Source of the DNA: an uncultured Gammaproteobacteria bacterium
Lineage (GTDB): Bacteria; Patescibacteriota; Microgenomatia; Daviesbacterales; UBA10151
Assembly: GCA_964387865.1 (NCBI GenBank)
Contig: CAYLXC010000001.1
Location: forward strand, 50,597 to 114,596
DNA: 64,000 nt
Direction of reading: 5' to 3'
This document shows positions 2,831 to 62,632 of the stretch, one piece after another; position 1 is the stretch's first letter, and every line of letters starts with the position of its first letter. Below the pieces are notes generated by a model. It was given only the letters and a program-made list of their open reading frames with translations. It did not search any database and was not told where the DNA came from. The position numbers and the translations under genes were made by a program.

Positions 2831-4486
2831 ATGGCCAAATTAAATCAAAGAGCTGCTGCCCATATTCTTCTTCTTGTAACAGCAATAGGCATTATTGCAT
2901 TAACTCTGGTTACTAATACATTCTCTTTTAAGGACAAACTATTCTCCCAGCTTTTTCCCAAATCTAAATCATTCGCATCACAATTGTATGAATCTACTCC
3001 TCTAAATGAATTATCCATGTACCCTAAAGCAAGTAATAATATTCAGTTATTTGCCTATTTTGGGGTAAATAAATTCCAACAAAACGTTCCTCAATTCGTC
3101 AAGGATTATCTGGCAAAAGAAATGGACTTTTTTTTATTTGATTTCCAACATGATTACCCCTGCATTGATAGTGGAAATTACGATTTTCCCTGTCCAAACA
3201 ATAATTATAATTTTTCAGGGCTTTGGAATTTAACAAGCGATCTTAAAGCGATTTTACCCAACAAATTAAAAGTTATTATTCATGGCTGCGAAGCATTTGG
3301 GAATCACCCCTGGTGCCCCTCTTTTCCAATACTTACTGATAATGACATTATGCACAACAAAGATAGTTCTATTAAAAGGTATATCTTAGGTTCAAGACTT
3401 TTTAATGTAAATAATCCCACAACCAGAGATAAGATTGCTTTGTATTGGAGAGATACATTTAATACAAAAAATGTAGATGGAGTTGTTTTTGATTCATTTA
3501 ATCCTGATCAGGCAGCCTCACTTGGCAGGGGGTCCTGTTTGGATGATACTTGCGACACCACTATTAATCCTGCGTCATTTATTACTGATCGGGCCGAATT
3601 CCAAAGCTGTTTGGAAGGACCTTGCGAAACTTATGATTTTTGGACAGAAAGGATGGGAGCATTTGGAAGGGAAACTATGAATTCCTCTCCTGGAAGAGAA
3701 GTTATATATAATGGTTTCTCACTGGATCCAAATTCAAAATACGGTCCTTACAACAGTAATTTTACGGATTACTTCACAGGAGCTTTAATTGAATATCCCC
3801 AGGAAATGATATTTAGCCCGGAAAAGTTTAAAAACTACTTGGACGCCATTAATTATATTCTGAACAAAGGCAAAAAATTATTCATTATTTTTCAGCCTCA
3901 GCTATCAAGCATCCCCTCATTAAATATCAATTTGAATTTGGAAAGATTTTTCCTTGCAACTTATCTTCTGCTTCAAAAGAATTCTTATACTTTTTTTAGC
4001 TACCATCCGGGAGAACCATATAGATTGGATTCTTCGGAATGGCTTTATTTTTATAAAGACTGGAATTTGGATTTTGGTACACCTTTAGATTTCTACAGAA
4101 GTGTAAACTCGCCTGATTTATATTACCGCCAATATAGCAATGGCTATGCAGTTGTTAACTCATCAGATTTTTCTGTAAACTTTCCGTTCCCGCCGGGTGA
4201 ATGGCGTGAGTGGGATCCTTATGATAGTTCAAAAGGTGTTAGCGGATCAACAGCAATACCACCTAAAACTGGAAAATTTTTCTTTGAAGCTTCCAAGTTC
4301 CCAACTCCTTCCCCTACTCCCCCACCCAAGATAGGCGATATAAATGGGGATGGGGCTGTAAATGTAGTGGATTTCTCGATTCTATTATCTAAATGGAATA
4401 CAGCAGATATAGGTGCTGATTTAAATGGAGACGGAATAGTTAATGTAGTTGATTTCTCAATCCTTTTATCTAATTGGGGGACATAG
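2831..4486 (+). CDS. secreted/membrane-anchored protein (551 aa) with a C-terminal tandem type-I dockerin module after a Pro/Thr linker; the central domain is possibly glycoside-hydrolase-like
   Basis: N-terminal signal-anchor (MAKLNQRAAAHILLLVTAIGIIALTLV), linker PTPSPTPPPK, and two dockerin repeats GDINGDGAVNVVDFSILLSKW / DLNGDGIVNVVDFSILLSNWGT (DxNxDGxVNxxD calcium-binding pattern). Confidence 0.7.
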   Translation: MAKLNQRAAAHILLLVTAIGIIALTLVTNTFSFKDKLFSQLFPKSKSFASQLYESTPLNELSMYPKASNNIQLFAYFGVNKFQQNVPQFVKDYLAKEMDFFLFDFQHDYPCIDSGNYDFPCPNNNYNFSGLWNLTSDLKAILPNKLKVIIHGCEAFGNHPWCPSFPILTDNDIMHNKDSSIKRYILGSRLFNVNNPTTRDKIALYWRDTFNTKNVDGVVFDSFNPDQAASLGRGSCLDDTCDTTINPASFITDRAEFQSCLEGPCETYDFWTERMGAFGRETMNSSPGREVIYNGFSLDPNSKYGPYNSNFTDYFTGALIEYPQEMIFSPEKFKNYLDAINYILNKGKKLFIIFQPQLSSIPSLNINLNLERFFLATYLLLQKNSYTFFSYHPGEPYRLDSSEWLYFYKDWNLDFGTPLDFYRSVNSPDLYYRQYSNGYAVVNSSDFSVNFPFPPGEWREWDPYDSSKGVSGSTAIPPKTGKFFFEASKFPTPSPTPPPKIGDINGDGAVNVVDFSILLSKWNTADIGADLNGDGIVNVVDFSILLSNWGT

Positions 4487-4528
4487 AAAGTTGACTTTAA
4501 TCCCAACTTAGCTGTTAATTAAACTAGA

Positions 4529-6316
4529 GTGAATAAATTAAATCAGGCAGGTGCTTCTCATATACTCATTCTTGTTGCTGTTGTAGGCTTTCTCTTTTTT
4601 CTACTAATATCCAACGCTTTCGACTTTAAAGATAAACTTTTTAGCAATTTATTCCCTAAACCTCCATCACATGCAGTTTCTCCATATAAAATCGGTGCCT
4701 ATTATTTTGGTATGTGGTCATCTACAGATACTGTACCGGATCATCTGGATAATGTTGAAAGAGTTTATGGAAGACGAGATCTGTGGGGAGGAGTAAAAGA
4801 CTTTTATGGTTTAGAGCCGGGAATCCCAAAAGATACCAGAGGCTGGACCGGAGATTTTTCTCATCTCAAACCGGAAATTGGATACTATGATTACAGTATT
4901 TCTGGTCCTACTATTCTAGAACAACAAATAATTCAGGCTAAACAAAACGGGTTAAGTTTTTTTAATTTTTACTGGTATTGGGATTCCACATATAAAAAAG
5001 AATTTCTTAGCAGTGGAATAAATTCTTTCTTGCAAGCAACCAATAAAAATCAGCTGCAGTTTATGATTTCAATTGCAGCTCATCCTTGGTGTAATGGCCC
5101 TACATGCCTATCAATACCTCTTCAGGATGGAGTGCAAACTACTCAAATTATTGTGGATAAATATTTCTCTCAACCAAATTATCTTAAAACTCAAAATGGA
5201 AGACCGATTATATTTATACTTGACTCACGAGGTATGTATGGAGGAACAATACAAGATACTCAAGACTATATTTCCCTTTTAAAACTAACTTCACAAAACA
5301 GATTAGGTGTTGAACCAATTGTGCTGATTTCCGTTGAAAATCCAGATGCCAGATCAATTACTAATACTGATGGATATTCTTGCGTAGCCACCTATATTCA
5401 ACCTTCTGGAGCACAATCATATCAATATTATCTTGATAATTTTACAAACCATTTTGCAACTTTCACTGATAAACCGCTCATGCCATGTTTTGTGAGTAAC
5501 TTTGATGAACGTCCAAGGCAAGATATATCAATAACAGATAGGAACCAAATACGATATTTTAGTGATTTTTCAGAAACACTTTTTAGGGATGGGGTTACTC
5601 GGGTTAAACAATACATGGATTCCCAAACAAATGAACTTAGTAAGATATTAACAATTTATGCATGGAATGAATGGCATGAAGGTGGAATAATAGAGCCTAA
5701 TGTGAGAGATAAAAATAAAAGGTTAAGCATAATAGCTGAAACATTTAGCTTAACAACAAACCCTATCGGTACTTTTGATCTTGCAAACTGCTCCTTAATA
5801 GAAGGCTGGACCTGTGATGCTGATGATTATAATGCTACGTTGAATGTTCACCTTTACAAGGATGGGCCCTATGGAAGTGGGATATTCATCGCATCAACAT
5901 CTGCAAATATTACAAGGGAGCCAGCTGTTGGAAGTTCTTGTGGAGGAAATCCCAATCATGGATTTTCTTATGTAACACCACCCTCACTAATGGATAGCCA
6001 GCCGCATACAATTTATGCATATGGTATAGATATCCCTTCCGGAACTAATTCCATTCTAAATGGTAATCCTAAAACTATTCAGTGTAATCCCACTCCCTCA
6101 CCTACCCCAACCCCAAGTCCTTCCCCATCTCCTACTCCTACCCCTACTCCACCTCCTAAGACTGGGGATATTAATGGAGATGGATCCGTAAATGTAGTTG
6201 ATTTCTCGATCCTTTTATCTAAATGGAACACATCAGATTCTGCATCTGATCTAAATGGAGATGGGATAGTTAATGTAGTAGATTTTTCTATACTTCTATC
6301 TAACTGGGGGACGTAA
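4529..6316 (+). CDS. paralogous secreted protein (595 aa) with the same N-terminal anchor and C-terminal dockerin module but a different central (putative carbohydrate-active) domain
   Basis: N-terminus MNKLNQAGASHILILVAVVGFLFFLL...DFKDKLFSNLFPK is near-identical in pattern to the upstream gene. Linker PTPSPTPTPSPSPSPTPTPTPPPK. Dockerin repeats GDINGDGSVNVVDFSILLSKW / DLNGDGIVNVVDFSILLSNWGT. The last ~170 nt of each gene are nearly identical at the DNA level. Confidence 0.7.
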   Translation: MNKLNQAGASHILILVAVVGFLFFLLISNAFDFKDKLFSNLFPKPPSHAVSPYKIGAYYFGMWSSTDTVPDHLDNVERVYGRRDLWGGVKDFYGLEPGIPKDTRGWTGDFSHLKPEIGYYDYSISGPTILEQQIIQAKQNGLSFFNFYWYWDSTYKKEFLSSGINSFLQATNKNQLQFMISIAAHPWCNGPTCLSIPLQDGVQTTQIIVDKYFSQPNYLKTQNGRPIIFILDSRGMYGGTIQDTQDYISLLKLTSQNRLGVEPIVLISVENPDARSITNTDGYSCVATYIQPSGAQSYQYYLDNFTNHFATFTDKPLMPCFVSNFDERPRQDISITDRNQIRYFSDFSETLFRDGVTRVKQYMDSQTNELSKILTIYAWNEWHEGGIIEPNVRDKNKRLSIIAETFSLTTNPIGTFDLANCSLIEGWTCDADDYNATLNVHLYKDGPYGSGIFIASTSANITREPAVGSSCGGNPNHGFSYVTPPSLMDSQPHTIYAYGIDIPSGTNSILNGNPKTIQCNPTPSPTPTPSPSPSPTPTPTPPPKTGDINGDGSVNVVDFSILLSKWNTSDSASDLNGDGIVNVVDFSILLSNWGT

Positions 6317-7652
6317 GAAATTTATGTGCTTCCTTAATCCTTTTTATACTTTCCTCCTCGCCTAAAATTTTCATGCATTCAAAAAGCGGTGGGGTTACAA
6401 TCTGGCCTGAGATTGCAACCCTAATTAGTTGAAACATATCAGATGCTGACAAACCTTCTTGACTAGCCAATTCCCTGAAAGTTTTTTCAAACACCTCTGC
6501 TTTCCATGGTTTTTCCATTCTTTCCAGCTCTTCCGCAACTCTTCCAATCTTTAATCTTAAATCTTTAATCCCTGCCTTGCCGGCAGGCAGGTTTAATCTA
6601 TTAAATACCTCTATTTCATATTCCGGCTTTTCCCATAAAAAATCTGTTAATGGCACAAAATCTGATAATTTCTTTATCCTCTCCTTTATTAAAGGTATAA
6701 CTTTTCCAATCTCTTCCTCTGTTGGATGATCCAAGGCTCCCCCTGAAATATTTTTTAAATATTCTAAAATTTGAGATTTAAGATTTGAGTTTTGAGATTT
6801 CCTTATGTATTCCCCATTTAACCACTCAAGTTTTGTTACATCAAAATACGCTGATGAAGCATTCACGTCTTTAAAATCAAAAAGTTTTATCATCTCCTCT
6901 ATTTCAAAAATTTCTTTCCCTTCAGGATGAGTCCAGCCTAAAAGTGCCAAAAAATTAAGTACAGCCTCTTTTAAATACCCATCATCCCTAAACTCTAGTG
7001 TGGATTTTGCCCCATGTCTTTTGGATAACTTAGCTCTGTCAGATCCAACCAAAACAGGCATATGGGCAAATTGCGGATGAATCCACTCAAAAGTATCATA
7101 AATCATCAAATGTTTCGGGGTTGAAGAAATAAACTCATTACCCCGGATTACATGAGTAATTTCCATTAAATGATCATCCACTACATTCGCAAAATTGTAA
7201 GTCGGATACCCGTCTGATTTTAGAATCACAAAATCTTCTTGGGTATTATTAGGAAAACTAATTTTTTTATCTCCTACCAAATCTTGCCAAACAGTTTCCC
7301 CTTCCTTCTTAACCTTAAACCTTATTGCTTTTCCGTCTTTATAAGCAAACCCTTTTTCTAAAAGCTCAAAAGCATATTTTTTATAAATATCCAGTCTTTC
7401 GGATTGAATATAGGGTGCATATGGACCACCGATATCAGGCCCTTCATCATACTCTAAACCTAACCATTTTAAAGTTTGATAAATTTGCTCAACACTTTCC
7501 GCAACAAATCTTTCCCTATCCGTATCCTCAAGCCTTAATATGAATTTCCCTCCCATTTTTTTTGCAAACACAAAATCAAATAGCGCTTGCCAGGCTGTTC
7601 CAATATGTGGTGCGCCTGTTGGGGATGGCGCAAGTCTAACCCTAACTTCCAT
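6300..7652 (-). CDS. gltX: glutamate--tRNA ligase
   Basis: Class I aaRS signatures: PSPTGAPHIG (HIGH) and KLSKR (KMSKS). Typical GluRS N-terminal catalytic-domain organisation. 450 aa. The 3' end overlaps the convergent dockerin gene by 17 nt. Confidence 0.9.
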   Translation of the reverse strand: MEVRVRLAPSPTGAPHIGTAWQALFDFVFAKKMGGKFILRLEDTDRERFVAESVEQIYQTLKWLGLEYDEGPDIGGPYAPYIQSERLDIYKKYAFELLEKGFAYKDGKAIRFKVKKEGETVWQDLVGDKKISFPNNTQEDFVILKSDGYPTYNFANVVDDHLMEITHVIRGNEFISSTPKHLMIYDTFEWIHPQFAHMPVLVGSDRAKLSKRHGAKSTLEFRDDGYLKEAVLNFLALLGWTHPEGKEIFEIEEMIKLFDFKDVNASSAYFDVTKLEWLNGEYIRKSQNSNLKSQILEYLKNISGGALDHPTEEEIGKVIPLIKERIKKLSDFVPLTDFLWEKPEYEIEVFNRLNLPAGKAGIKDLRLKIGRVAEELERMEKPWKAEVFEKTFRELASQEGLSASDMFQLIRVAISGQIVTPPLFECMKILGEEESIKRIKEAHKFLTSPS

Positions 7653-8726: not shown

Positions 8727-8798
8727 GTTGACGATTTGTGTAAAATTCCCAAAACACAAATTGTCATCCTGATCCGGCGAAGCCGGAGAAGGATCTAT
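8727..8798 (+). repeat. copy of compound stem-loop repeat family A (hairpin 'atttgtg...cacaaat' + 'ttgtcatcctga' + 'tccggcgaagccgga' + 'gaaggatct')
   Basis: Shares the 'caaattgtcatcctgatccggcgaagccggagaaggatct' core with the copies at 27846-27933, 59502-59590, 60962-61036 and 62524-62632. Lies between convergent genes. Confidence 0.7.
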
Positions 8799-9726: not shown

Positions 9727-11079
9727 TTACTTTTTACTTAATCTAACATCCACTCTTTCCATATCCCTTGGAAATAGAGAAGCTTCCCTTATATTGGCAA
9801 GATTAAGAATATGCATAGTTATTCTCTCAAGTCCAAATGAAAAACCACCTTCAGAGGGCATGCCAAATTTAAAAGCCATCAAATACATCTCAAAATTTTT
9901 TGGATCCATGCCATGAGATTTAATTGACTCAACTAGCTGGTCATAGTTATTTATTCTCTGGCTACCACTCATTATCTCCACTCCTCTGAAAAGAAGGTCA
10001 TAGCTTAAAGAATAATTAGGATCTTTTGGATCTGGCATAGTATAAAAAGGTTTTGCAGCAATTGGAAAATGAGTCACTGTGACAAAATCGCTCCTATGTT
10101 TTTCTTTTGCCCAATTACATAAATCAATCTCATCTTGTGGAGTTAAATCTTTTTCATTGCGATTATCTCTCCCGAATTCTTTGAAGATTAATTCCTGCGC
10201 TTCCCTCAGTGTAAGCCTTGGGATCTTACCGTAGGCAACGGCATCCACACCAAACTCATCCAGTATATCTTTACATTTTTCTTCTGCATGTTTAATAGTT
10301 TCAATAGCAACTTTTTCCAAAAGGTCCAAAAGGTCTTCAAATTCAACAAATCCAATCTCACAATCCATTTGGGTGATTTCTGCCAAATGTCTGGTTGTAA
10401 CTGAAGGTTCTGCTCTGTAAGCCTTAGTCACTGTAAATACACGTTCAAAAACAGGAACTAGCATTTGTTTATAAAGCTGGGGACTTTGAGTAAGAAAAGC
10501 TTTGTGTTCAAAATAATCTATTTTAAAAACTTCTGCTCCTCCTTCTGTTGCAGATGCAGCAATTGTGGGAACAACAATTTCAGTACATCTTAATTCTCTT
10601 GCAGATTTTCTAAAACCATCCAGAATTGCCTCTTGAACCTTAAAAATTGCTTTAACCTTTGGATGCCTTAAAGTTAAAGATCTAAAATCCAAAAGGGTTG
10701 GAAGTTGTAAATCTAAATTCTTTCCTCCCATATCAAACGGTAATTCTGATGCTTTTGATAAAACTTGAATACTTTCTGCAGAAATTTCAATTTCACCGGT
10801 TGGGATTTTTTTGTTTACCATATGTGGAGGCCTTTTATTAACCTTTCCTGTTACGGAAACAACATCTTGGGGATGTAGATCCCTCACCTCGAAGGTGGGC
10901 TTTGACTCCTTCGAGGTGAATGTGGTCTGCTGCGATACTACAACTTGAATTAGTCCACTTCGATCCCCTATATCCAAGAACAAAATTTTCCCATGATCAC
11001 GCCTGGTTTGCACCCAGCCATTAATTTTCACATTTTCACCTATTTTGTTATTACAATCTAATATTAATGTCCTATTCAT
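9727..11079 (-). CDS. aspS: class IIb aminoacyl-tRNA synthetase, aspartate--tRNA ligase (archaeal/short type; AsnRS cannot be excluded)
   Basis: N-terminal OB anticodon-binding fold. Motif 2 FRAE...TRHLAE and motif 3 GGFSFGLERI. 450 aa. Carries a 39-nt palindromic in-frame insert (see the repeat at 10885-10923). Confidence 0.8.
   Translation of the reverse strand: MNRTLILDCNNKIGENVKINGWVQTRRDHGKILFLDIGDRSGLIQVVVSQQTTFTSKESKPTFEVRDLHPQDVVSVTGKVNKRPPHMVNKKIPTGEIEISAESIQVLSKASELPFDMGGKNLDLQLPTLLDFRSLTLRHPKVKAIFKVQEAILDGFRKSARELRCTEIVVPTIAASATEGGAEVFKIDYFEHKAFLTQSPQLYKQMLVPVFERVFTVTKAYRAEPSVTTRHLAEITQMDCEIGFVEFEDLLDLLEKVAIETIKHAEEKCKDILDEFGVDAVAYGKIPRLTLREAQELIFKEFGRDNRNEKDLTPQDEIDLCNWAKEKHRSDFVTVTHFPIAAKPFYTMPDPKDPNYSLSYDLLFRGVEIMSGSQRINNYDQLVESIKSHGMDPKNFEMYLMAFKFGMPSEGGFSFGLERITMHILNLANIREASLFPRDMERVDVRLSKK
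10885..10923. repeat. palindromic element family B ('cacctcgaagg-tgggctttgactc-cttcgaggtg') inserted in-frame in aspS
   Basis: Perfect 11-bp inverted repeat around a 13-nt loop. A near-identical copy lies in cca (15823-15861). It encodes ...TSKESKPTFEVRD... in the aspS frame. Confidence 0.75.
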
Positions 11080-15597: not shown

Positions 15598-17034
15598 ATG
15601 CATTATACACTACCTAATGAGGTAAAAAATATTTTAGATAAATTTAGAAAATCCGGATACCAAATTTATATTGTTGGAGGGGCAGTACGTGATCTTTTGA
15701 TGGGAAAAGAGATTAAGGACTGGGATTTTACAACAGATGCTAAACCTGAGGAAATCTTGAAAGTAATCCCGGAAGGTTTTTACGATAATAAATTCGGAAC
15801 AGTAGGAGTACCAACAGAGAACACCTCGAAGGTGGGCTCTGACTCCTTCGAGGTGAATGATGAAATCATGGAGATCACAACAATGAGAAAGGAAGGTAAG
15901 TATACTGATTTTCGCCACCCATCCGAAGTTTCCTGGACCAACAAAATTGAGGAAGATTTGGCAAGAAGGGACTTTACCATAAATGCTATGGCTTTGGGAA
16001 TCCCAAGCAAACACCTCCGAGGTGAAGATAATGGTGTAACACCAAGAGAACACCTCGGAGGTGAAATCCTGGAAACTGTGGATCCCTTCAGCGGCCAAAA
16101 TGATATTAAAAACCACCTCATCAGGGCTGTCGGAGACCCAACCAAACGCTTCCAGGAAGATGCTCTTCGTCTTATCAGAGCAATCAGGATTGCAACTGAA
16201 TTGGAATTTGACATAGATAAGGAAACATTTGAAGCCATCAAAAAAAATGCCAATCTTTTAAAAGAAATTGCCTGGGAAAGGATAAGAGATGAACTATTTA
16301 AACTCCTTGCATCCACGAATCCATACATGGGTACCTTGAAACTTAGGGAAGCGGGGATACTGCAAATGATTCTTCCAGAGCTTGAGCGCTGTTTTGGGAT
16401 AGTTCAGGAAGGTCCAAAACATGACAGAACTTATGACATTGGTGAGCACTCACTACTAACTTTAAAACATACCCCATCTTCCGATGCACTGACTAGATTT
16501 GCTGCACTTCTTCATGACATTGGCAAACCGGATACAGTGGAAAAGGCTCAAGATGGGAATGTCACATTTTATCAACATGATGTAGTTGGTGGAAATTTGG
16601 TTTTAAAAATAGCAAAAAGATTAAATTTATCAAGAAAACAAACAGATAAATTATTTAGATTAGTAAGATTCCATATGTTTACAGTTGCAGAGAATCAGAC
16701 GGATTCAGCAATAAGAAGATTTATTAAAAATGTAGGTCTGGAAAATATTGAAGACATGATGGCCTTAAGAGTTGGCGACAGGTTGGGAGGAGGGACACAA
16801 ACGGAAACCTCTTGGAGAATGGAAAAATTCAAAGAAAGAATTAAAGAAGTATTAAAAAAGCCATTTTCACTTTCAGATTTAAAAGTAAATGGTAATGATG
16901 TAATGGAAATTCTAAAGATTAAACCCGGCCCAAAAGTAGGTGAAATCCTCCAAAAACTCTTTGAAGAAGTCTTAGAAGATGCTTCTAAAAATAACAAAGA
17001 ATATTTATTAAAAAGGCTCCAAGAACTTAAATAA
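15598..17034 (+). CDS. cca: CCA-adding tRNA nucleotidyltransferase with C-terminal HD domain
   Basis: PolyA-pol/CCA head (GGAVRDLLMG...DWDFTT, RRDFTINA) and HD motif LLHDIGK. Contains three palindromic repeat inserts (15823-15861, 16023-16035, 16061-16073). Confidence 0.85.
   Translation: MHYTLPNEVKNILDKFRKSGYQIYIVGGAVRDLLMGKEIKDWDFTTDAKPEEILKVIPEGFYDNKFGTVGVPTENTSKVGSDSFEVNDEIMEITTMRKEGKYTDFRHPSEVSWTNKIEEDLARRDFTINAMALGIPSKHLRGEDNGVTPREHLGGEILETVDPFSGQNDIKNHLIRAVGDPTKRFQEDALRLIRAIRIATELEFDIDKETFEAIKKNANLLKEIAWERIRDELFKLLASTNPYMGTLKLREAGILQMILPELERCFGIVQEGPKHDRTYDIGEHSLLTLKHTPSSDALTRFAALLHDIGKPDTVEKAQDGNVTFYQHDVVGGNLVLKIAKRLNLSRKQTDKLFRLVRFHMFTVAENQTDSAIRRFIKNVGLENIEDMMALRVGDRLGGGTQTETSWRMEKFKERIKEVLKKPFSLSDLKVNGNDVMEILKIKPGPKVGEILQKLFEEVLEDASKNNKEYLLKRLQELK
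15823..15861. repeat. palindromic element family B copy ('cacctcgaagg-tgggctctgactc-cttcgaggtg') inserted in-frame in cca
   Basis: It differs from the aspS copy by one nucleotide in the loop. It encodes ENTSKVGSDSFEVND. Confidence 0.75.
16023..16073. repeat. two short palindromes, 'cacctccgaggtg' and 'cacctcggaggtg', which are reverse complements of each other, in-frame in cca
   Basis: Both are preceded by 'gaacacctc' and related to family B. They encode the cca-specific insertion ...KHLRGEDNGVTPREHLGGE... Confidence 0.6.
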
Positions 17035-26151: not shown

Positions 26152-26192
26152 CAGAAAAGGCAGGAATTTTTGGGGCAGAAATATTTTTTGTG

Positions 26193-26494
26193 CCTAGGAA
26201 GATAGTAAGCCAGATTCTGTTTCAAGATGATAATTTATCTAATGCTCCTGATTTCGAAAATCGAGCGAGCAGCTCTTTCGGTTCTAGGATTGCAGCGGGG
26301 AGGATTGCCCGTTTCACTCCCACACCAGATGGTGCGGGATTCGTCACTGTTGCTCTAACTAGTGATTACTCATGCCGATTTACATCGACCACCCTGCTCT
26401 ACGCTGTCTGGACTTTCCTCCACGTTCATGTAAACTACGTTCGTGTAAACCGAATCGTAGTAAACTGAACGTGGTAATCATCCTTCTTCCTAGG
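26193..26494 (-). ncRNA. rnpB: RNase P RNA (bacterial type, reduced)
   Basis: The minus strand contains the P4 signature GGAGGAAAGTCC...AGGGTGG and the 3' P4 strand ACAGAATCTGGCTTAC. P1 is closed by 'cctaggaaga'/'tcttcctagg'. It lies in a 360-nt gene-free gap. The overlapping plus-strand ORF 26124-26468 is spurious. Confidence 0.75.
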
Positions 26495-26510
26495 CCCATA
26501 TATTATACAT

Positions 26511-27497
26511 CTAAACCTTCTTTTCTTCAATTATCTCTGTTGCAATAATTTGTAAAACAACTGCCATAGGCACAGCTAAAAGAGCCCCTCCAAATCCCAA
26601 AAGGCGCGAACCTACTGCAATTGCCAAAATTACAACTAAAGGGTTTAAACCAACAGCCCTTTTCATAACCTGTGGCACAATCAAATGGTTCTCAAGTTGT
26701 TGAATAACAAAATACATTGCTGTAACAGCCAAACTCAAAATTGGGGATATTGTTAATGCTATCAAAATCGAAGGAATTGCTGAAACAATTGGTCCTATTA
26801 CCGGCACTACTTCTAAAACCCCTGCAACAACAGCAAGAGGTAGAGCATATGGAATACCTAAAATAATAAGTCCTATATAAGATAAAAGGCCTATTATTAA
26901 ACTTAAAAAAAGTTGTCCTCTAAGCCATCCTCCCAATTTTTCCTCAATTCTTACTATTATTTTCTTTACCTTATCTTTTCTTCCTATAAAAAGGGATGCA
27001 AATCTCTCTTCCAAATTGTCGCGTTCTAAAAGTAAATAAAATGTCAAAACAAGAAGAAATATGATCATTAAGAAATTATCAAAAATTGATAGTGTAATTG
27101 AGAAAACATTTCCAGGTATACTGCTTAATTGTGATTGTAAAACAGATTTATCTATTGCCGCATTATTTAATAATCTGTCTAGAATTGGTGGAAGTGTTGA
27201 GAATAACTTACGTGTTTCTTCAACAAGCGGAGGTATAATTATAGCAAGTAGACTTGATAAAATCGCTATTATAATAATGTAGGTTATACCAATACCCAAA
27301 GCTTTCGGAAGCTTTAAATTTGTGAAAAATTTAACCATTGGAGATAAAGCAGACATTAAAATTAACGCCACAAATAAAATCAAAAGCAAATCTCTAATTA
27401 AAAATATTAACCAAAGTGATAAGATAAATATGGTAATAAAAATAACTGTTTTATGGGAAATGTCTATTTTTTGTATCATTAATATGGATGATACCAT
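26511..27497 (-). CDS. AI-2E family transporter (PerM/YdiK-like permease)
   Basis: Eight-TM architecture with the AI-2E pattern (N-terminal TM pair, conserved central loop). Confidence 0.75.
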   Translation of the reverse strand: MVSSILMIQKIDISHKTVIFITIFILSLWLIFLIRDLLLILFVALILMSALSPMVKFFTNLKLPKALGIGITYIIIIAILSSLLAIIIPPLVEETRKLFSTLPPILDRLLNNAAIDKSVLQSQLSSIPGNVFSITLSIFDNFLMIIFLLVLTFYLLLERDNLEERFASLFIGRKDKVKKIIVRIEEKLGGWLRGQLFLSLIIGLLSYIGLIILGIPYALPLAVVAGVLEVVPVIGPIVSAIPSILIALTISPILSLAVTAMYFVIQQLENHLIVPQVMKRAVGLNPLVVILAIAVGSRLLGFGGALLAVPMAVVLQIIATEIIEEKKV

Positions 27498-28483
27498 TTA
27501 GCAACTTTATTTTCTACTCTAGTTACAAAATCTTCCTTTGTAATATCAAACCAAACTACATCTTTTTCTTTCTTAAACCAAGCCAATTGTCTTCTAACGT
27601 ATCCATGAATTTTGTGTTGCATTTTTCTAATTAATCCTTTATCCCCCCAAATCTCCCTTATCTCCCCACTCAAATAATCTGCCAAAACTCCATACTCTAA
27701 ACCCAACTGTCTCATTCTTTTTAAGCTCAATCCACCTTTATATAGTTTTTTAGCCTCCTCAATCATCCCGATTCTATCTACCACCCTATCATCCACTCTT
27801 TTATACAAAAGCTGCCGTGGAGCAGTTAAGCCAATCTTCAGCGTATTTGACAAACTGCGTACAATTTTTAAACGCAGTTTGTCATCCTGAGCGAGTCCCG
27901 AGTTTATCGAGGGACGAGTCGAAGGATCTCCTTTATGATTTGATAATGCCAGTTCTATTGCCCTCACTAACCTCCTGGGGTTTTTCCTATCTGAAGAATT
28001 CATCTTTTGCCACTTTCCTAAGGAAAGTTCCCGAAGTTTTCGCTGCAATTTATCTAAAGATAATTTCTCAAGTCTCTTTCTTAATTTTTTATCCACTGGA
28101 ATCACTAAATTTGATAAACCATAAAGGATCGCCTTAAGATATAACCCTGTTCCACCAACAATAATTGGAAGTTTTCCTCTTTTTATAATCTTCTGTATCG
28201 CCCTGCGAGCATCCTTAACATAGTCGGCCACACTATATTGTTTTTTCGGATCAACCAAATCATACATCCAGATTTTTACACCATCGACTACCCAGTATCC
28301 ATTCCCTTTGACATTTCCTCCATGTTTCGAGATTATTCCAGGCAACTTCCCAGTGCCGATATCTAAGCCTTTATATACCTGCCGTGAATCACAAGCTACG
28401 AGCTCACCATCAAATCTTTTGGCCAACTTCAGTGCCAGATCTGTTTTCCCTGTTGCAGTTGGACCTAAAATAACAAGTATCAT
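27479..28483 (-). CDS. miaA: tRNA dimethylallyltransferase
   Basis: P-loop GPTATGKT, DSRQVYKGLDIGTGK. Carries an in-frame copy of repeat family A (27846-27933). Confidence 0.85.
   Translation of the reverse strand: MILVILGPTATGKTDLALKLAKRFDGELVACDSRQVYKGLDIGTGKLPGIISKHGGNVKGNGYWVVDGVKIWMYDLVDPKKQYSVADYVKDARRAIQKIIKRGKLPIIVGGTGLYLKAILYGLSNLVIPVDKKLRKRLEKLSLDKLQRKLRELSLGKWQKMNSSDRKNPRRLVRAIELALSNHKGDPSTRPSINSGLAQDDKLRLKIVRSLSNTLKIGLTAPRQLLYKRVDDRVVDRIGMIEEAKKLYKGGLSLKRMRQLGLEYGVLADYLSGEIREIWGDKGLIRKMQHKIHGYVRRQLAWFKKEKDVVWFDITKEDFVTRVENKVAKWYHPY
27846..27933 (+). repeat. repeat family A copy inserted in-frame inside miaA
   Basis: 'tatttgacaaactgcgtacaatttttaaacgcagtttgtcatcctgagcgag...gacgagtcgaaggatctcc' has the same module order as the ribosomal-operon copies. 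It encodes the miaA-specific segment ...PSINSGLAQDDKLRLKIVRSLSNTLKIGL... Confidence 0.7.
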
Positions 28484-50297: not shown

Positions 50298-50810
50298 TTA
50301 AGCTTTTTTACTCCTTCCTCGTGATTTAATCTTAGGAGAAATGACTTTGGGCTTTGATGTTTTCACAGACACTCCTCTACTTACATCTTTAGTATTTTTC
50401 TCTTCTTTGCTTAATTCTTTATTCTTAATTCTTAATTCTTTTTCCAAAGGTTTCAGCTCCTCTGCTCCAATTAAGCTCATTTTTACCATCATTGTTTGAT
50501 CTCCAAATCTAGTTCCCAATCTTACCAATGATGTGTACCCGGAATTTCTATTAGCTAATTTTGGCACAATCTCTTTAATTAATCTTTCCCTTAAATTTTT
50601 ATCATTAAGAAAAGTCTGCAACCTAGATTGAGTATTTTTTTCTTTTGCAAGATTTACAACCTTATCAACTAAACCTTTAATTGCTTTTGCCTTAGCTTCC
50701 GAGGTCTGGATAGTTCCGTAAGTAAAAAGGGATTGCACTAAACCCTTAAAAAGAGTGTCTCTTTGATCTTTATTTCTACCAAGGTGTTTACCATAAACTC
50801 TATGCCTCAC
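50298..50810 (-). CDS. rplQ: 50S ribosomal protein L17 (with Lys-rich C-terminal extension)
   Basis: MRHRVYGKHLGRNKDQRDTLFKGL L17 signature. Confidence 0.9.
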   Translation of the reverse strand: MRHRVYGKHLGRNKDQRDTLFKGLVQSLFTYGTIQTSEAKAKAIKGLVDKVVNLAKEKNTQSRLQTFLNDKNLRERLIKEIVPKLANRNSGYTSLVRLGTRFGDQTMMVKMSLIGAEELKPLEKELRIKNKELSKEEKNTKDVSRGVSVKTSKPKVISPKIKSRGRSKKA

Positions 50811-51705
50811 TAAGAGTCAACCCCCTTTCAGAAAGCTTTTCTGAAATTAGACTTAATGATTTGGTACCTAAATTTTTAGCTTTTAAAAGTTGAGGTTTCG
50901 GAATATTTATTAAATCCTCAATTGTATTTATCTCAATTGCCTTCAAAGCATTTGTAATACGTACAGGCAAATCCAATTCTTCTATTGTAAGTTTTAAAGT
51001 TTCCTCAGAAATTTTTGATCCCTCTTCTTTAATCTCCTCTTCCATATCAGGTTCATAAACTTTCTTAAAAGTTTCTGATAAAATTTTTGATGCCTCATTT
51101 AAAGCGTCAAGCGGTGTAACAGCTCCATTAGTTGTAATGTCCAAAGTCAATTTATCAAAATCCGCCTTTCTTCCAACTCTGGTTGGATCAACAGAATAAT
51201 TTACGGCAACAACAGGAGAAAATAGCGAATCAATTGAAATTACTCCTATCTCATTTATTTTCCTCTCATCTGCAACTGAATAACCTTTACCAACTTCTGC
51301 TGTTGCTTCCATATTTAATTTAGATTTGGAATCTGTAAGAGTTGCAATTACTTGATCTCCATTTACTATTTCCCCGTCCCCCTCTATCTCAAAATCCGAA
51401 GCTTTTACAACTTTTTTGCCTGATGCTTTAACAGTCAATTTTATCCCTTTTTCTGAATGAATTTGAAGGCGAACCTTTTTTAAATTTAAAATTATTTCAA
51501 TTACATCTTCCAAGATTCCATCAATTGTTGAAAATTGATGTGAAACTCCATCAATTTTTACAGAAGTTATAGCAGCACCCTTAAGGGATGCGAGCAGTAC
51601 CCTCCTTAGACTGTTTCCCAAAGTATGACCAAAACCCTCCTCTAAAGGTTCAAGTACGATCTTTGCAAAATTATCTTTTTCAACTACTATCTTTACTTTA
51701 AACAT
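50800..51705 (-). CDS. rpoA: DNA-directed RNA polymerase subunit alpha
   Basis: N-terminal domain plus alpha-CTD. The start is reset to the ATG at 51705 (MFKVKIV...); the table extension to 51744 runs through an intergenic hairpin. Confidence 0.85.
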   Translation of the reverse strand: MFKVKIVVEKDNFAKIVLEPLEEGFGHTLGNSLRRVLLASLKGAAITSVKIDGVSHQFSTIDGILEDVIEIILNLKKVRLQIHSEKGIKLTVKASGKKVVKASDFEIEGDGEIVNGDQVIATLTDSKSKLNMEATAEVGKGYSVADERKINEIGVISIDSLFSPVVAVNYSVDPTRVGRKADFDKLTLDITTNGAVTPLDALNEASKILSETFKKVYEPDMEEEIKEEGSKISEETLKLTIEELDLPVRITNALKAIEINTIEDLINIPKPQLLKAKNLGTKSLSLISEKLSERGLTLSEA

Positions 51706-51795
51706 ATCGTTCCTTCTGTCATTCCTGCGAAAGCAGGAATCCATACAAATAATTATTATATGGATCCCGTATCAAGTACGGGATGACGTTTCATG

Positions 51796-59501: not shown

Positions 59502-59590
59502 CCGATTTGACAATTTGAATACAATTTTTAATTCAAATTGTCATCCTGATCCGGCGAAGCCGGAGAAGGATCTCCTTCATGAGTCCTCTC
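59502..59590 (+). repeat. repeat family A copy in the rplE-rplX spacer (13-bp-stem hairpin 'tgacaatttgaat/attcaaattgtca' + 'tcctga' + GC hairpin 'tccggcgaagccgga' + 'gaaggatctccttcatgagtcc')
   Basis: Read directly from the sequence. It fills almost the entire 103-nt spacer. Confidence 0.75.
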
Positions 59591-60961: not shown

Positions 60962-61036
60962 GCCGATTTGACAATTTGAATATAATTTCTGAATTCAAAT
61001 TGTCATCCTGAGCGAGCGTAGCGAGTCGAAGGATCT
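60962..61036 (+). repeat. repeat family A copy in the rpmC-rplP spacer
   Basis: 'ccgatttgacaatttgaatataatttctgaattcaaattgtcatcctgagcgagcgtagcgagtcgaaggatct'. Confidence 0.75.
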
Positions 61037-61039
61037 TCA

Positions 61040-61453
61040 TCATATTTTCCCCACGATCTTTGTATTAAGTGGCAGTTTATGGGAAGCTAACCTTAATGCT
61101 TCATGAGCAACAATTTCTGTAACTGCTCCCATTTCAAAAATTAACTGTCCTCTCTTTACAACAGCTACATACCCCTCTACATCACCTTTTCCAGATCCCA
61201 TCCTTGATTCTGCGGGATGTTTGGTAACAGGTTTATCCGGAAAAATCCTAATCCAAATTCTTCCACCTCTTTGGGTATAATGAGCCATTGCACGCCTTGC
61301 AGATTCAATTTGTCTTGCACTTATCCACCCATTTTCCATAGATTTTAGTCCAAATGCTCCAAAGGCAAGTCTGTTGCCTCTTGTGGCAACACCTCCTCTT
61401 GTCCCCTTAAACATTTTTCGGTATTTAGTTCTTTTCGGTTGTAACAGTGCCAT
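61040..61453 (-). CDS. rplP: 50S ribosomal protein L16
   Basis: [14 protein letters not shown]-terminus. Confidence 0.9.
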
Positions 61454-62515: not shown

Positions 62516-62523
62516 ATTTGTTA

Positions 62524-62632
62524 TTTGACAATTTGCGTAAAATTACTAAACGCAAATTGTCATCCTGAGCGAGCGAAGTCGAGTCAGACTCGACGGAGCG
62601 AGTCGAAGGATCTCCTTCATGAGTCCGCTCAC
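62524..62632 (+). repeat. repeat family A copy in the rplV-rpsS spacer (longest copy, extra GC hairpin 'gtcgagtcagactcgac')
   Basis: 'tttgacaatttgcgtaaaattactaaacgcaaattgtcatcctgagcgagcgaagtcgagtcagactcgacggagcgagtcgaaggatctccttcatgagtccgctcac'. Confidence 0.75.

Follow-up and report, generated by a model that had tools for sequence, protein, structure and literature searches.

The stretch of DNA analysed here, referred to as the window, comprises 64,000 nucleotides, has a GC content of ~35% and is C-rich on the + strand over its whole length. Its closest MiaA and S3 relatives all belong to Candidatus Daviesbacteria (Microgenomates), and the source of the window is a CPR bacterium. Within an intact miaA gene on the minus strand lies a structured element of ~95 nt with two hairpins (H1 and H2), which belongs to a repeat family, family A, with four further copies in the window. 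The features to which we refer are:

27479-28483, minus strand: miaA (tRNA dimethylallyltransferase), 334 aa, intact (Pfam IPPT, 7.5e-47)
27845-27939, + strand: whole family-A element, antisense to miaA, ATTTGACAA ... GAAGGATCTCC TTTATGAT, from alignment with the four other window copies and the orthologous miaA copies
27847-27865, + strand: promoter-like hexamers in the sequence, TTGACA (27847-52) and TACAAT (27860-65), 7 nt apart
27848-27884, + strand: hairpin H1 as folded, 13-bp stem (27848-27860 / 27872-27884) and 11-nt loop (27861-27871)
27851-27881, + strand: hairpin caaactgcgt/acgcagtttg as read from the sequence
27880-27883, + strand: TGTC tag of the REP module, paired within H1 (tag as defined in PMC3733652)
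27882-27890, + strand: tcatcctga, from the sequence
27884-27927, + strand: hairpin H2 (REP module) as folded, closing stem ATCCT (27884-88) / AGGAT (27923-27)
27891-27920, + strand: GC hairpin in the sequence, stem GTCCC (27895-99) / GGGAC (27911-15)
27921-27931, + strand: gaaggatctcc, from the sequence
27928-27939, + strand: tail CTCC and conserved extension TTTATGAT (family consensus TCCTTCATGA), common to the copies at 59505 and 62523 and to many metagenome copies
8727-8797, + strand: family-A copy between convergent genes, 2-3 nt from either stop codon
59505-59590, + strand: family-A copy at the L24/L5 junction (genes on the minus strand), empty in three relatives
60966-61045, + strand: family-A copy at the L16/L29 junction, empty in three relatives
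62523-62630, + strand: family-A copy at the S19/L22 junction, empty in three relatives
26190-26493, minus strand: RNase P RNA gene (Rfam, 117 bits), immediately downstream of an AI-2E transporter gene, itself next after miaA; its promoter (in 26494-26540) is the canonical TTGAAG-17 nt-TATAAT

The four modules that a sequence-only reading had picked out in miaA (hairpin, tcatcctga, GC hairpin and gaaggatctcc) are all present where it had placed them; its account of the orientation has to be corrected, the element being antisense to miaA. In the miaA copy H1 reads TTGACAA...TTGTCA with a TAnAAT loop, while H2 has a tandem GA and a variable GC-rich inner hairpin (GTCCC/GGGAC); compared with shuffled sequences the two hairpins gave z = -4.8 and -5.1. 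The core motifs TTGTCATCCTGA (≤1 mismatch) and GAAGGATCT each occur five times in the 64-kb window, all on the + strand and paired every time, with 0.35 and 0.88 occurrences, respectively, expected from shuffling and none of 100 shuffles reaching five. All five window copies have the same module order, i.e. ATTTGACAA, a variable stem, a loop starting with TAyAAT, the complementary stem, TTGTCA-TCCTGA, a variable GC-rich hairpin and GAAGGATCT(CC), and no H1 without H2 was found anywhere in the window. Two adjacent hairpins are predicted on both strands, and in four of the five copies they fold below shuffles (z between -4.4 and -7.5); for the copy at 60966 z is only -1.8. No Rfam 15 family was detected in the window at the gathering threshold, and a permissive Rfam scan of 27780-28000 gave chance-level miRNA matches alone (E > 0.08).

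The element is translated in the miaA frame with continuous read-through (...SNHKGDPSTRPSINSGLAQDDKLRLKIVRSLSNT...), using the sole antisense frame that lacks stops, and codes for MiaA residues ~183-213 (HKGDPS...RSLSN), i.e. ~31 residues. Solved MiaA structures in the PDB match the window MiaA with E-values down to 1e-40, and in these alignments the element-coded stretch is a gap between the helix ...RA(I/L)E(L/I) and the strand ...(I/V)GL, in the linker that joins the tRNA-binding insertion domain back to the core. The P-loop and every column invariant in 33 MiaA orthologues are retained. An AlphaFold model of the window MiaA has a mean pLDDT of 80, with residues 184-210 below 50, and the AF2 model superimposes on the E. 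coli MiaA-tRNA complex 2zm5 with TM-scores of 0.75/0.81; the ~31 residues are thus predicted to form a disordered surface loop, while the fold and the catalytic motifs of MiaA are intact. The claim that a member of a repeat family sits in frame between conserved MiaA segments is therefore borne out by the intact ORF, the five window copies and the structure and orthologue alignments. A second variable insertion, specific to Daviesbacteria, is present after the DIGTGK motif at residues 43-62 (window ~28298-28357); it too has low pLDDT and is absent from the solved MiaA structures.

Measured from RAIEL to LKIGL, the linker is 46 aa long in the window MiaA versus 32 aa in the orthologue L248, where it is Lys-rich, AT-rich (27% GC) and free of hairpins; without the flanking motifs the window linker is 36 aa, the second longest among about 107 orthologues (median 22 aa, range 15-47). 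Given 46 aa here and 32 aa in the hairpin-free orthologue, the element takes the place of the greater part of a dispensable linker and brings a net ~14 residues. The figure of about 30 added residues in the sequence-only reading consequently holds for what the element encodes and overstates the gain, since the linker was largely replaced. Judged by the sequences compared, the linker is hypervariable among Daviesbacteria. In L245 it holds a head-to-head dimer of TGTC-ATTCCCGC hairpins, in L246 an GTCATTGCGA-type repeat and in L247 an CACCTCGGA...TCCGAGGTG hairpin, so that this one spot has been colonised repeatedly, by at least four hairpin-repeat families across lineages. In L253 the linker carries H2 alone, at a site identical to that of the window element; for this reason H1 looks like a ~36-nt addition placed 5' of the TGTC tag and pairing with it.

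The same element is present at the same codon, and antisense, in the miaA genes of L120, L122/L123, L124 and L252, representing five independent assemblies (NCBI GCA_016176405.1, one ENA assembly, one JGI metagenome and two Logan assemblies) whose MiaA proteins are 63-70% identical to that of the window. The H2 interior, 30 nt in the window miaA, is 27 and 15 nt in orthologues, always a multiple of three, and in L252 it is lost altogether. Orthologues with equivalent residues had been named as speaking against an insertion; such residues are indeed present in the closest orthologues, through inheritance of the same element at the same codon, and they date the event rather than refute it. These comparisons show the element to have been acquired in an ancestor of a Daviesbacteria group and then inherited vertically.

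Among four orthologues the 45 nt of H1 constitute the most conserved stretch of miaA DNA (89% of sites identical vs 52% elsewhere), and where a column has the same residue throughout, the third codon position is invariant in 12 of 13 cases within H1 compared with 46 of 160 outside it (Fisher p = 8e-6). In L252, the fifth orthologue, two base pairs of H1 have been exchanged by compensatory double substitutions (C-G to G-C and G-C to U-A); four codons differ as a result, and the stem remains perfect. Over nine copies all 117 of 117 cells in the H1 stem are paired and four pairs show compensatory change, a degree of covariation that was reached in none of 500 shuffles.

In the window the S19/L22, L16/L29 and L24/L5 junctions of the S10/spc ribosomal-protein operon measure 132, 91 and 103 nt and each is filled by a family-A copy, while in three relatives (S3 84-92% identical) the same junctions measure 0-54 nt, partly with overlapping stop and start codons, and the element is absent. 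Judged by presence and absence alone, this shows family A to have been mobile in the window's lineage. Neither target-site duplications nor terminal inverted repeats were found at these three filled-versus-empty junctions. Among 150 ORFs flanking ~70 copies no transposase family was recurrent, Y1_Tnp was not among the top families and no RAYT was detected near the 70 copies. Viral contigs yielded no composite H1+H2 element and hence no hint of a phage vector. The view that the genome tolerates structured repeats in essential genes was stated too broadly for miaA, the essentiality of which is not established; the copies at the ribosomal-protein junctions do show tolerance at essential loci. In E. 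coli miaA is dispensable.

Two candidate explanations for features of these copies were rejected. In IS608 the TTAC comes from the target site; a TGTC tag supplied likewise by the target does not fit, as the empty ribosomal-protein junctions lack GACA/TGTC. A discontinuous ribosome-binding site (the element has AAGGAG in the mRNA sense) was also discarded, since H1 lies anywhere between 4 and 21 nt from the AUG and the copy in miaA is internal to the gene. In the empty sites an AAGGAG within the last part of L24 precedes the L5 start by 7 nt; in the window the two are ~100 nt apart and the L5 start has no Shine-Dalgarno of its own. One relative (L249) has an additional ORF of 108 aa between L2 and S19 (2500-2826) without a Pfam match. 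Many S3-bearing contigs from close relatives are only 1.0-1.5 kb long, roughly the spacing of the copies that flank L22-S3-L16, and because of this agreement we suggest that the repeats fragment short-read assemblies.

A scan for the H2 module (TTGTCATCCTGA-hairpin-GAAGGATC) with one genome per species gave at least 119 loci, and the matches listed include Acidobacteriota, Bacteroidota, Bacillota, Actinomycetota, Planctomycetota, several Proteobacteria classes, Patescibacteria and others. In these genomes an inverted copy often follows the module within 10-30 nt, or tandem partial TTGTCATCCTGAGC units stand before it. The composite H1+H2 element was detected at no fewer than 120 metagenome loci, from which 76 distinct well-formed copies were analysed. 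The inner H1 stems were of 50 different kinds among these 76 copies, with 429 of 456 positions (94%) Watson-Crick paired; the exceptions include 10 G-T(U) and 8 A-C pairs, a balance from which it follows that H1 has no transcribed-strand signature. The TAnAAT loop is kept in 57-65 of the 76 copies and TTGACA is conserved in most, and H2 folds more stably on the forward strand in 71 of 76. TGTC stands directly 5' of the H2 stem in all five window copies and in 120 of the 120 metagenome matches listed.

With tblastn no ribosomal-protein or miaA context was found among the 120 metagenome matches listed, the loci being many and unrelated. Family-A copies lie in frame in metagenome genes confirmed by Pfam as Nth (endonuclease III), PGK, ATP-dependent DNA ligase, Aminotran_5 (class-V aminotransferase, SufS-like), FeS_assembly_P and WecG glycosyltransferase, and also in ArgRS-N, Polysacc_synt and ComF-like genes; in several of these hosts the copy splits the Pfam domain match. 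This shows that family A inserts in frame into many other genes. The well-formed intragenic copies are antisense to their host in 10 of 10 cases, with the peptide (GDPS or EILR)...QDDK. Over the 76 copies 79 open frames are antisense and 48 sense, and this openness does not fully explain the uniform orientation within genes. Intergenic copies are likewise biased relative to the adjacent gene (40 antisense vs 19).

The closest likeness to a described repeat system is with the CGTC/TGTC-tagged REP superfamily, which includes Neisseria dRS3 and Rickettsia RPE-4/RPE-6, some copies of which lie inside genes (PMC3733652). These REPs are defined by a CGTC tag, or TGTC/CCTC, at one end of the palindrome, an 8-9 bp stem starting with A-T, T-A, a 4-5 nt loop and a short unpaired tail, mostly CCA; they occur mainly as head-to-head dimers, no dedicated transposase is known for them, and the 2013 survey reported them in five phyla, with no CPR (Di Nocera, De Gregorio & Rocco, BMC Genomics 14:522; PMC3733652). 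Like them, H2 has a TGTC tag (of the unpaired type) and a stem starting A-T/T-A, which in the minimal forms is a 9-"bp" stem including tandem G.A; the short G-rich loops of the minimal forms and the short 3' tail agree with them in part. The minimal copies have the stem ATCCT(GA)GC / GC(GA)AGGAT (e.g. ...ATCCTGAGCGAAGCGAAGGAT) and loops of C-GNA-G or GAAA; the miaA copy keeps ATCCT/AGGAT and has an expanded interior, with a nested hairpin of 15-36 nt as in many others. Both systems are also multi-copy and mostly intergenic near gene ends, with some copies intragenic, including in tRNA-related enzymes. The differences are that in family A the tag pairs as part of H1, an additional conserved hairpin not previously described, that the tail reads CTC(C), or CTA, and not CCA, that copies are single H1+H2 units and not head-to-head dimers, that the interior is often expanded to the nested GC hairpin and that the host is a CPR bacterium. 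Head-to-head dimers belong to other families, namely those in the L245 miaA linker and at 51717-51792 in the window.

As far as the accounts of Ogata et al. 2000 in PMC10969869 and PMC3733652 go, the Rickettsia palindromic elements (RPE) are in-frame palindromic repeats in many unrelated housekeeping genes, translated and kept among related species, and RPE-1 is 100-150 bp long, Rickettsia-specific and has its own conserved peptide. Within the limits of these accounts family A resembles them in these respects and in occupying fold-compatible in-frame positions, in miaA and nine other Pfam-confirmed genes; it differs in its length of ~95 nt and its peptide, and in that the linker of a single gene, MiaA, is occupied by different repeat families across lineages. 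The likeness to RPE-4/6 is one of shared CGTC-type architecture as described in PMC3733652, by description and not by consensus sequence. MITEs (Correia/NEMIS, ERIC, RUP) are also small, non-autonomous and able to create in-frame fusions, but at the three filled-versus-empty sites family A shows neither terminal inverted repeats nor a target-site duplication. GTAG REPs/BIMEs with RAYT transposases, known from E. coli and Pseudomonas, are classically extragenic and are thought to move as single-stranded hairpins. They share with family A the character of short multi-copy GC hairpins at intercistronic or 3' positions in operons, co-transcribed with genes, whereas the family-A tag is TGTC and not GTAG and family A is also intragenic. 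A literature search on CPR/Patescibacteria returned nothing relevant on REP, MITE or RPE repeats, and one with the element sequence strings returned primer matches alone; an intragenic translated hairpin repeat is thus apparently unreported for CPR bacteria.

Taken by its sequence, the family-A element is a REP-type palindrome consisting of the TGTC-tagged H2 and a 13-bp H1 whose 3' arm holds the tag; it would be non-autonomous, since no transposase family recurs in the 150 flanking ORFs and CGTC REPs have no known dedicated transposase. The reading that we favour, and regard as probable, is that an ancient insertion of such a palindrome with its extra hairpin into the permissive MiaA linker has been vertically inherited and is translated. 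We infer that copies spread as single-stranded hairpin DNA through a putative trans-acting enzyme and without target duplication. The in-frame, antisense and linker-sited state may then be what selection leaves, disruptive insertions having been lost, and H1 may be kept paired by constraint or repair acting on the hairpin itself and not on the protein. A purely junk insertion should decay, yet H1 is conserved, which argues for some function or homogenising process at work; that a host-level function or such a process lies behind the in-frame maintenance of H1 we put forward with reserve, as unlikely. The REP-insertion account leaves unexplained why TTGACA and TAnAAT are conserved and why the orientation is biased.

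One alternative is that the host maintains the element as a nucleic-acid signal, for instance a pair of hairpins that act in mRNA stability or processing, or a signal at the level of DNA, and that selection keeps it in miaA, where it would be more than a tolerated selfish insertion. The frozen synonymous sites of H1 in four orthologues, the two compensatory double changes in the fifth with 100% of cells paired, the conservation of loop and TTGACA in most of the 76 copies and the bias relative to genes (40 vs 19 intergenic, 10 vs 0 intragenic) speak for such a signal, and copies adjoin stop or start codons as transcribed REPs do (PMC3733652). Yet the element is missing from each of the three ribosomal-protein junctions in three relatives, the miaA linker of other Daviesbacteria contains hairpins of unrelated families or none, the host genes and flanks are functionally unrelated, Rfam gave no match, and the 10 G-U against 8 A-C pairs in H1 leave no transcribed-strand signature; gene conversion or intra-hairpin repair could, moreover, mimic selection. 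We therefore consider a host-maintained signal unlikely.

A more specific and rather speculative possibility is that H1+H2 constitute a conserved functional module of Microgenomates genomes, in which the -10-like TAnAAT loop stands beside duplex TTGACA. If so, it might act as an ssDNA or structure-dependent entry signal for RNA polymerase or primase, or as an RNA recognition hairpin, with host upkeep even in coding sequence, an idea suggested by the compensatory changes and the frozen synonymous sites in miaA.

The sequence-only reading had pointed to TTGACA as a reason to look for an internal promoter, which in the antisense direction would be of the sigma70 type (TTGACA + TACAAT) and fire inside miaA. 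The -35 hexamer is perfect, the -10-like hexamer varies at its third position as real -10 elements do, both are conserved family-wide and 71 of 76 copies have the more stable H2 on the forward strand, but TACAAT follows after 7 nt and not after 16-18 (17 in the canonical case), and a promoter scan made no call at the element. The promoter of the RNase P RNA gene has a 17-nt spacer, so normal spacing applies in this organism. Further, most copies aim antisense into the 3' end of the neighbouring gene, with no enrichment upstream of co-oriented genes, and the + strand ORFs downstream of copies have 2, 10 and 43 codons. The promoter idea thus finds no confirmation here and appears very improbable. 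That the insert is an assembly artefact, or an ordinary MiaA linker that merely resembles the repeat, we regard as scarcely credible, for while assemblers can be misled by repeats and the linker varies in length anyway, the element recurs at an identical codon in five further assemblies made from different samples, shares 64-86% identity over 56 nt as well as its module order with the intergenic window copies, and has 43% GC against 38% for the gene and 27% for the hairpin-free linker of L248.

With the insertion of a REP-type palindrome as the preferred reading, the Rickettsia-type repeat-to-protein phenomenon would extend to CPR/Patescibacteria. Genomes in this group of ultra-small bacteria are ~1 Mb and usually viewed as streamlined. 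The MiaA linker could serve as a natural experiment in how repeats make new peptide segments, and the miaA H1, evolving by in-frame compensatory changes, represents a clear overlap of nucleic-acid and coding constraints. For CPR genome annotation it matters that such repeats insert even between ribosomal-protein cistrons, that they may break short-read assemblies and that they inflate the number of "hypothetical" small ORFs (peptides CHPERS... and ...SLRMT).

Other repeats are present in the window. A second hairpin repeat, CACCTCGAAGGTGGGCT(T/C)TGACTCCTTCGAGGTG, forms a 97% identical pair at 10885-10922 and 15822-15859; each member is in frame within its host, the first an ORF resembling class II aminoacyl-tRNA synthetases (9727-11079, minus) and the second an ORF resembling CCA-adding/poly(A) polymerases (15598-17034, plus), and this repeat is probably what the sequence-only reading called family B. 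At 51717-51792 classical CGTC-type REPs are paired head to head, with TGTCATTCCTGCGAAAGCAGGAATCCAT on one strand and CGTCATCCCGTACTTGATACGGGATCCAT on the other, a classical ...GGAATCCAT pair; minus-strand genes border it on both sides, and it overlaps the start predicted for ORF 50800-51744. Finally, a 203-nt direct repeat with 79% identity (4290-4492 and 6120-6322, 1830 nt apart) probably stems from paralogous genes, and a shorter related repeat pair is found at 2837-2893 and 4535-4591.
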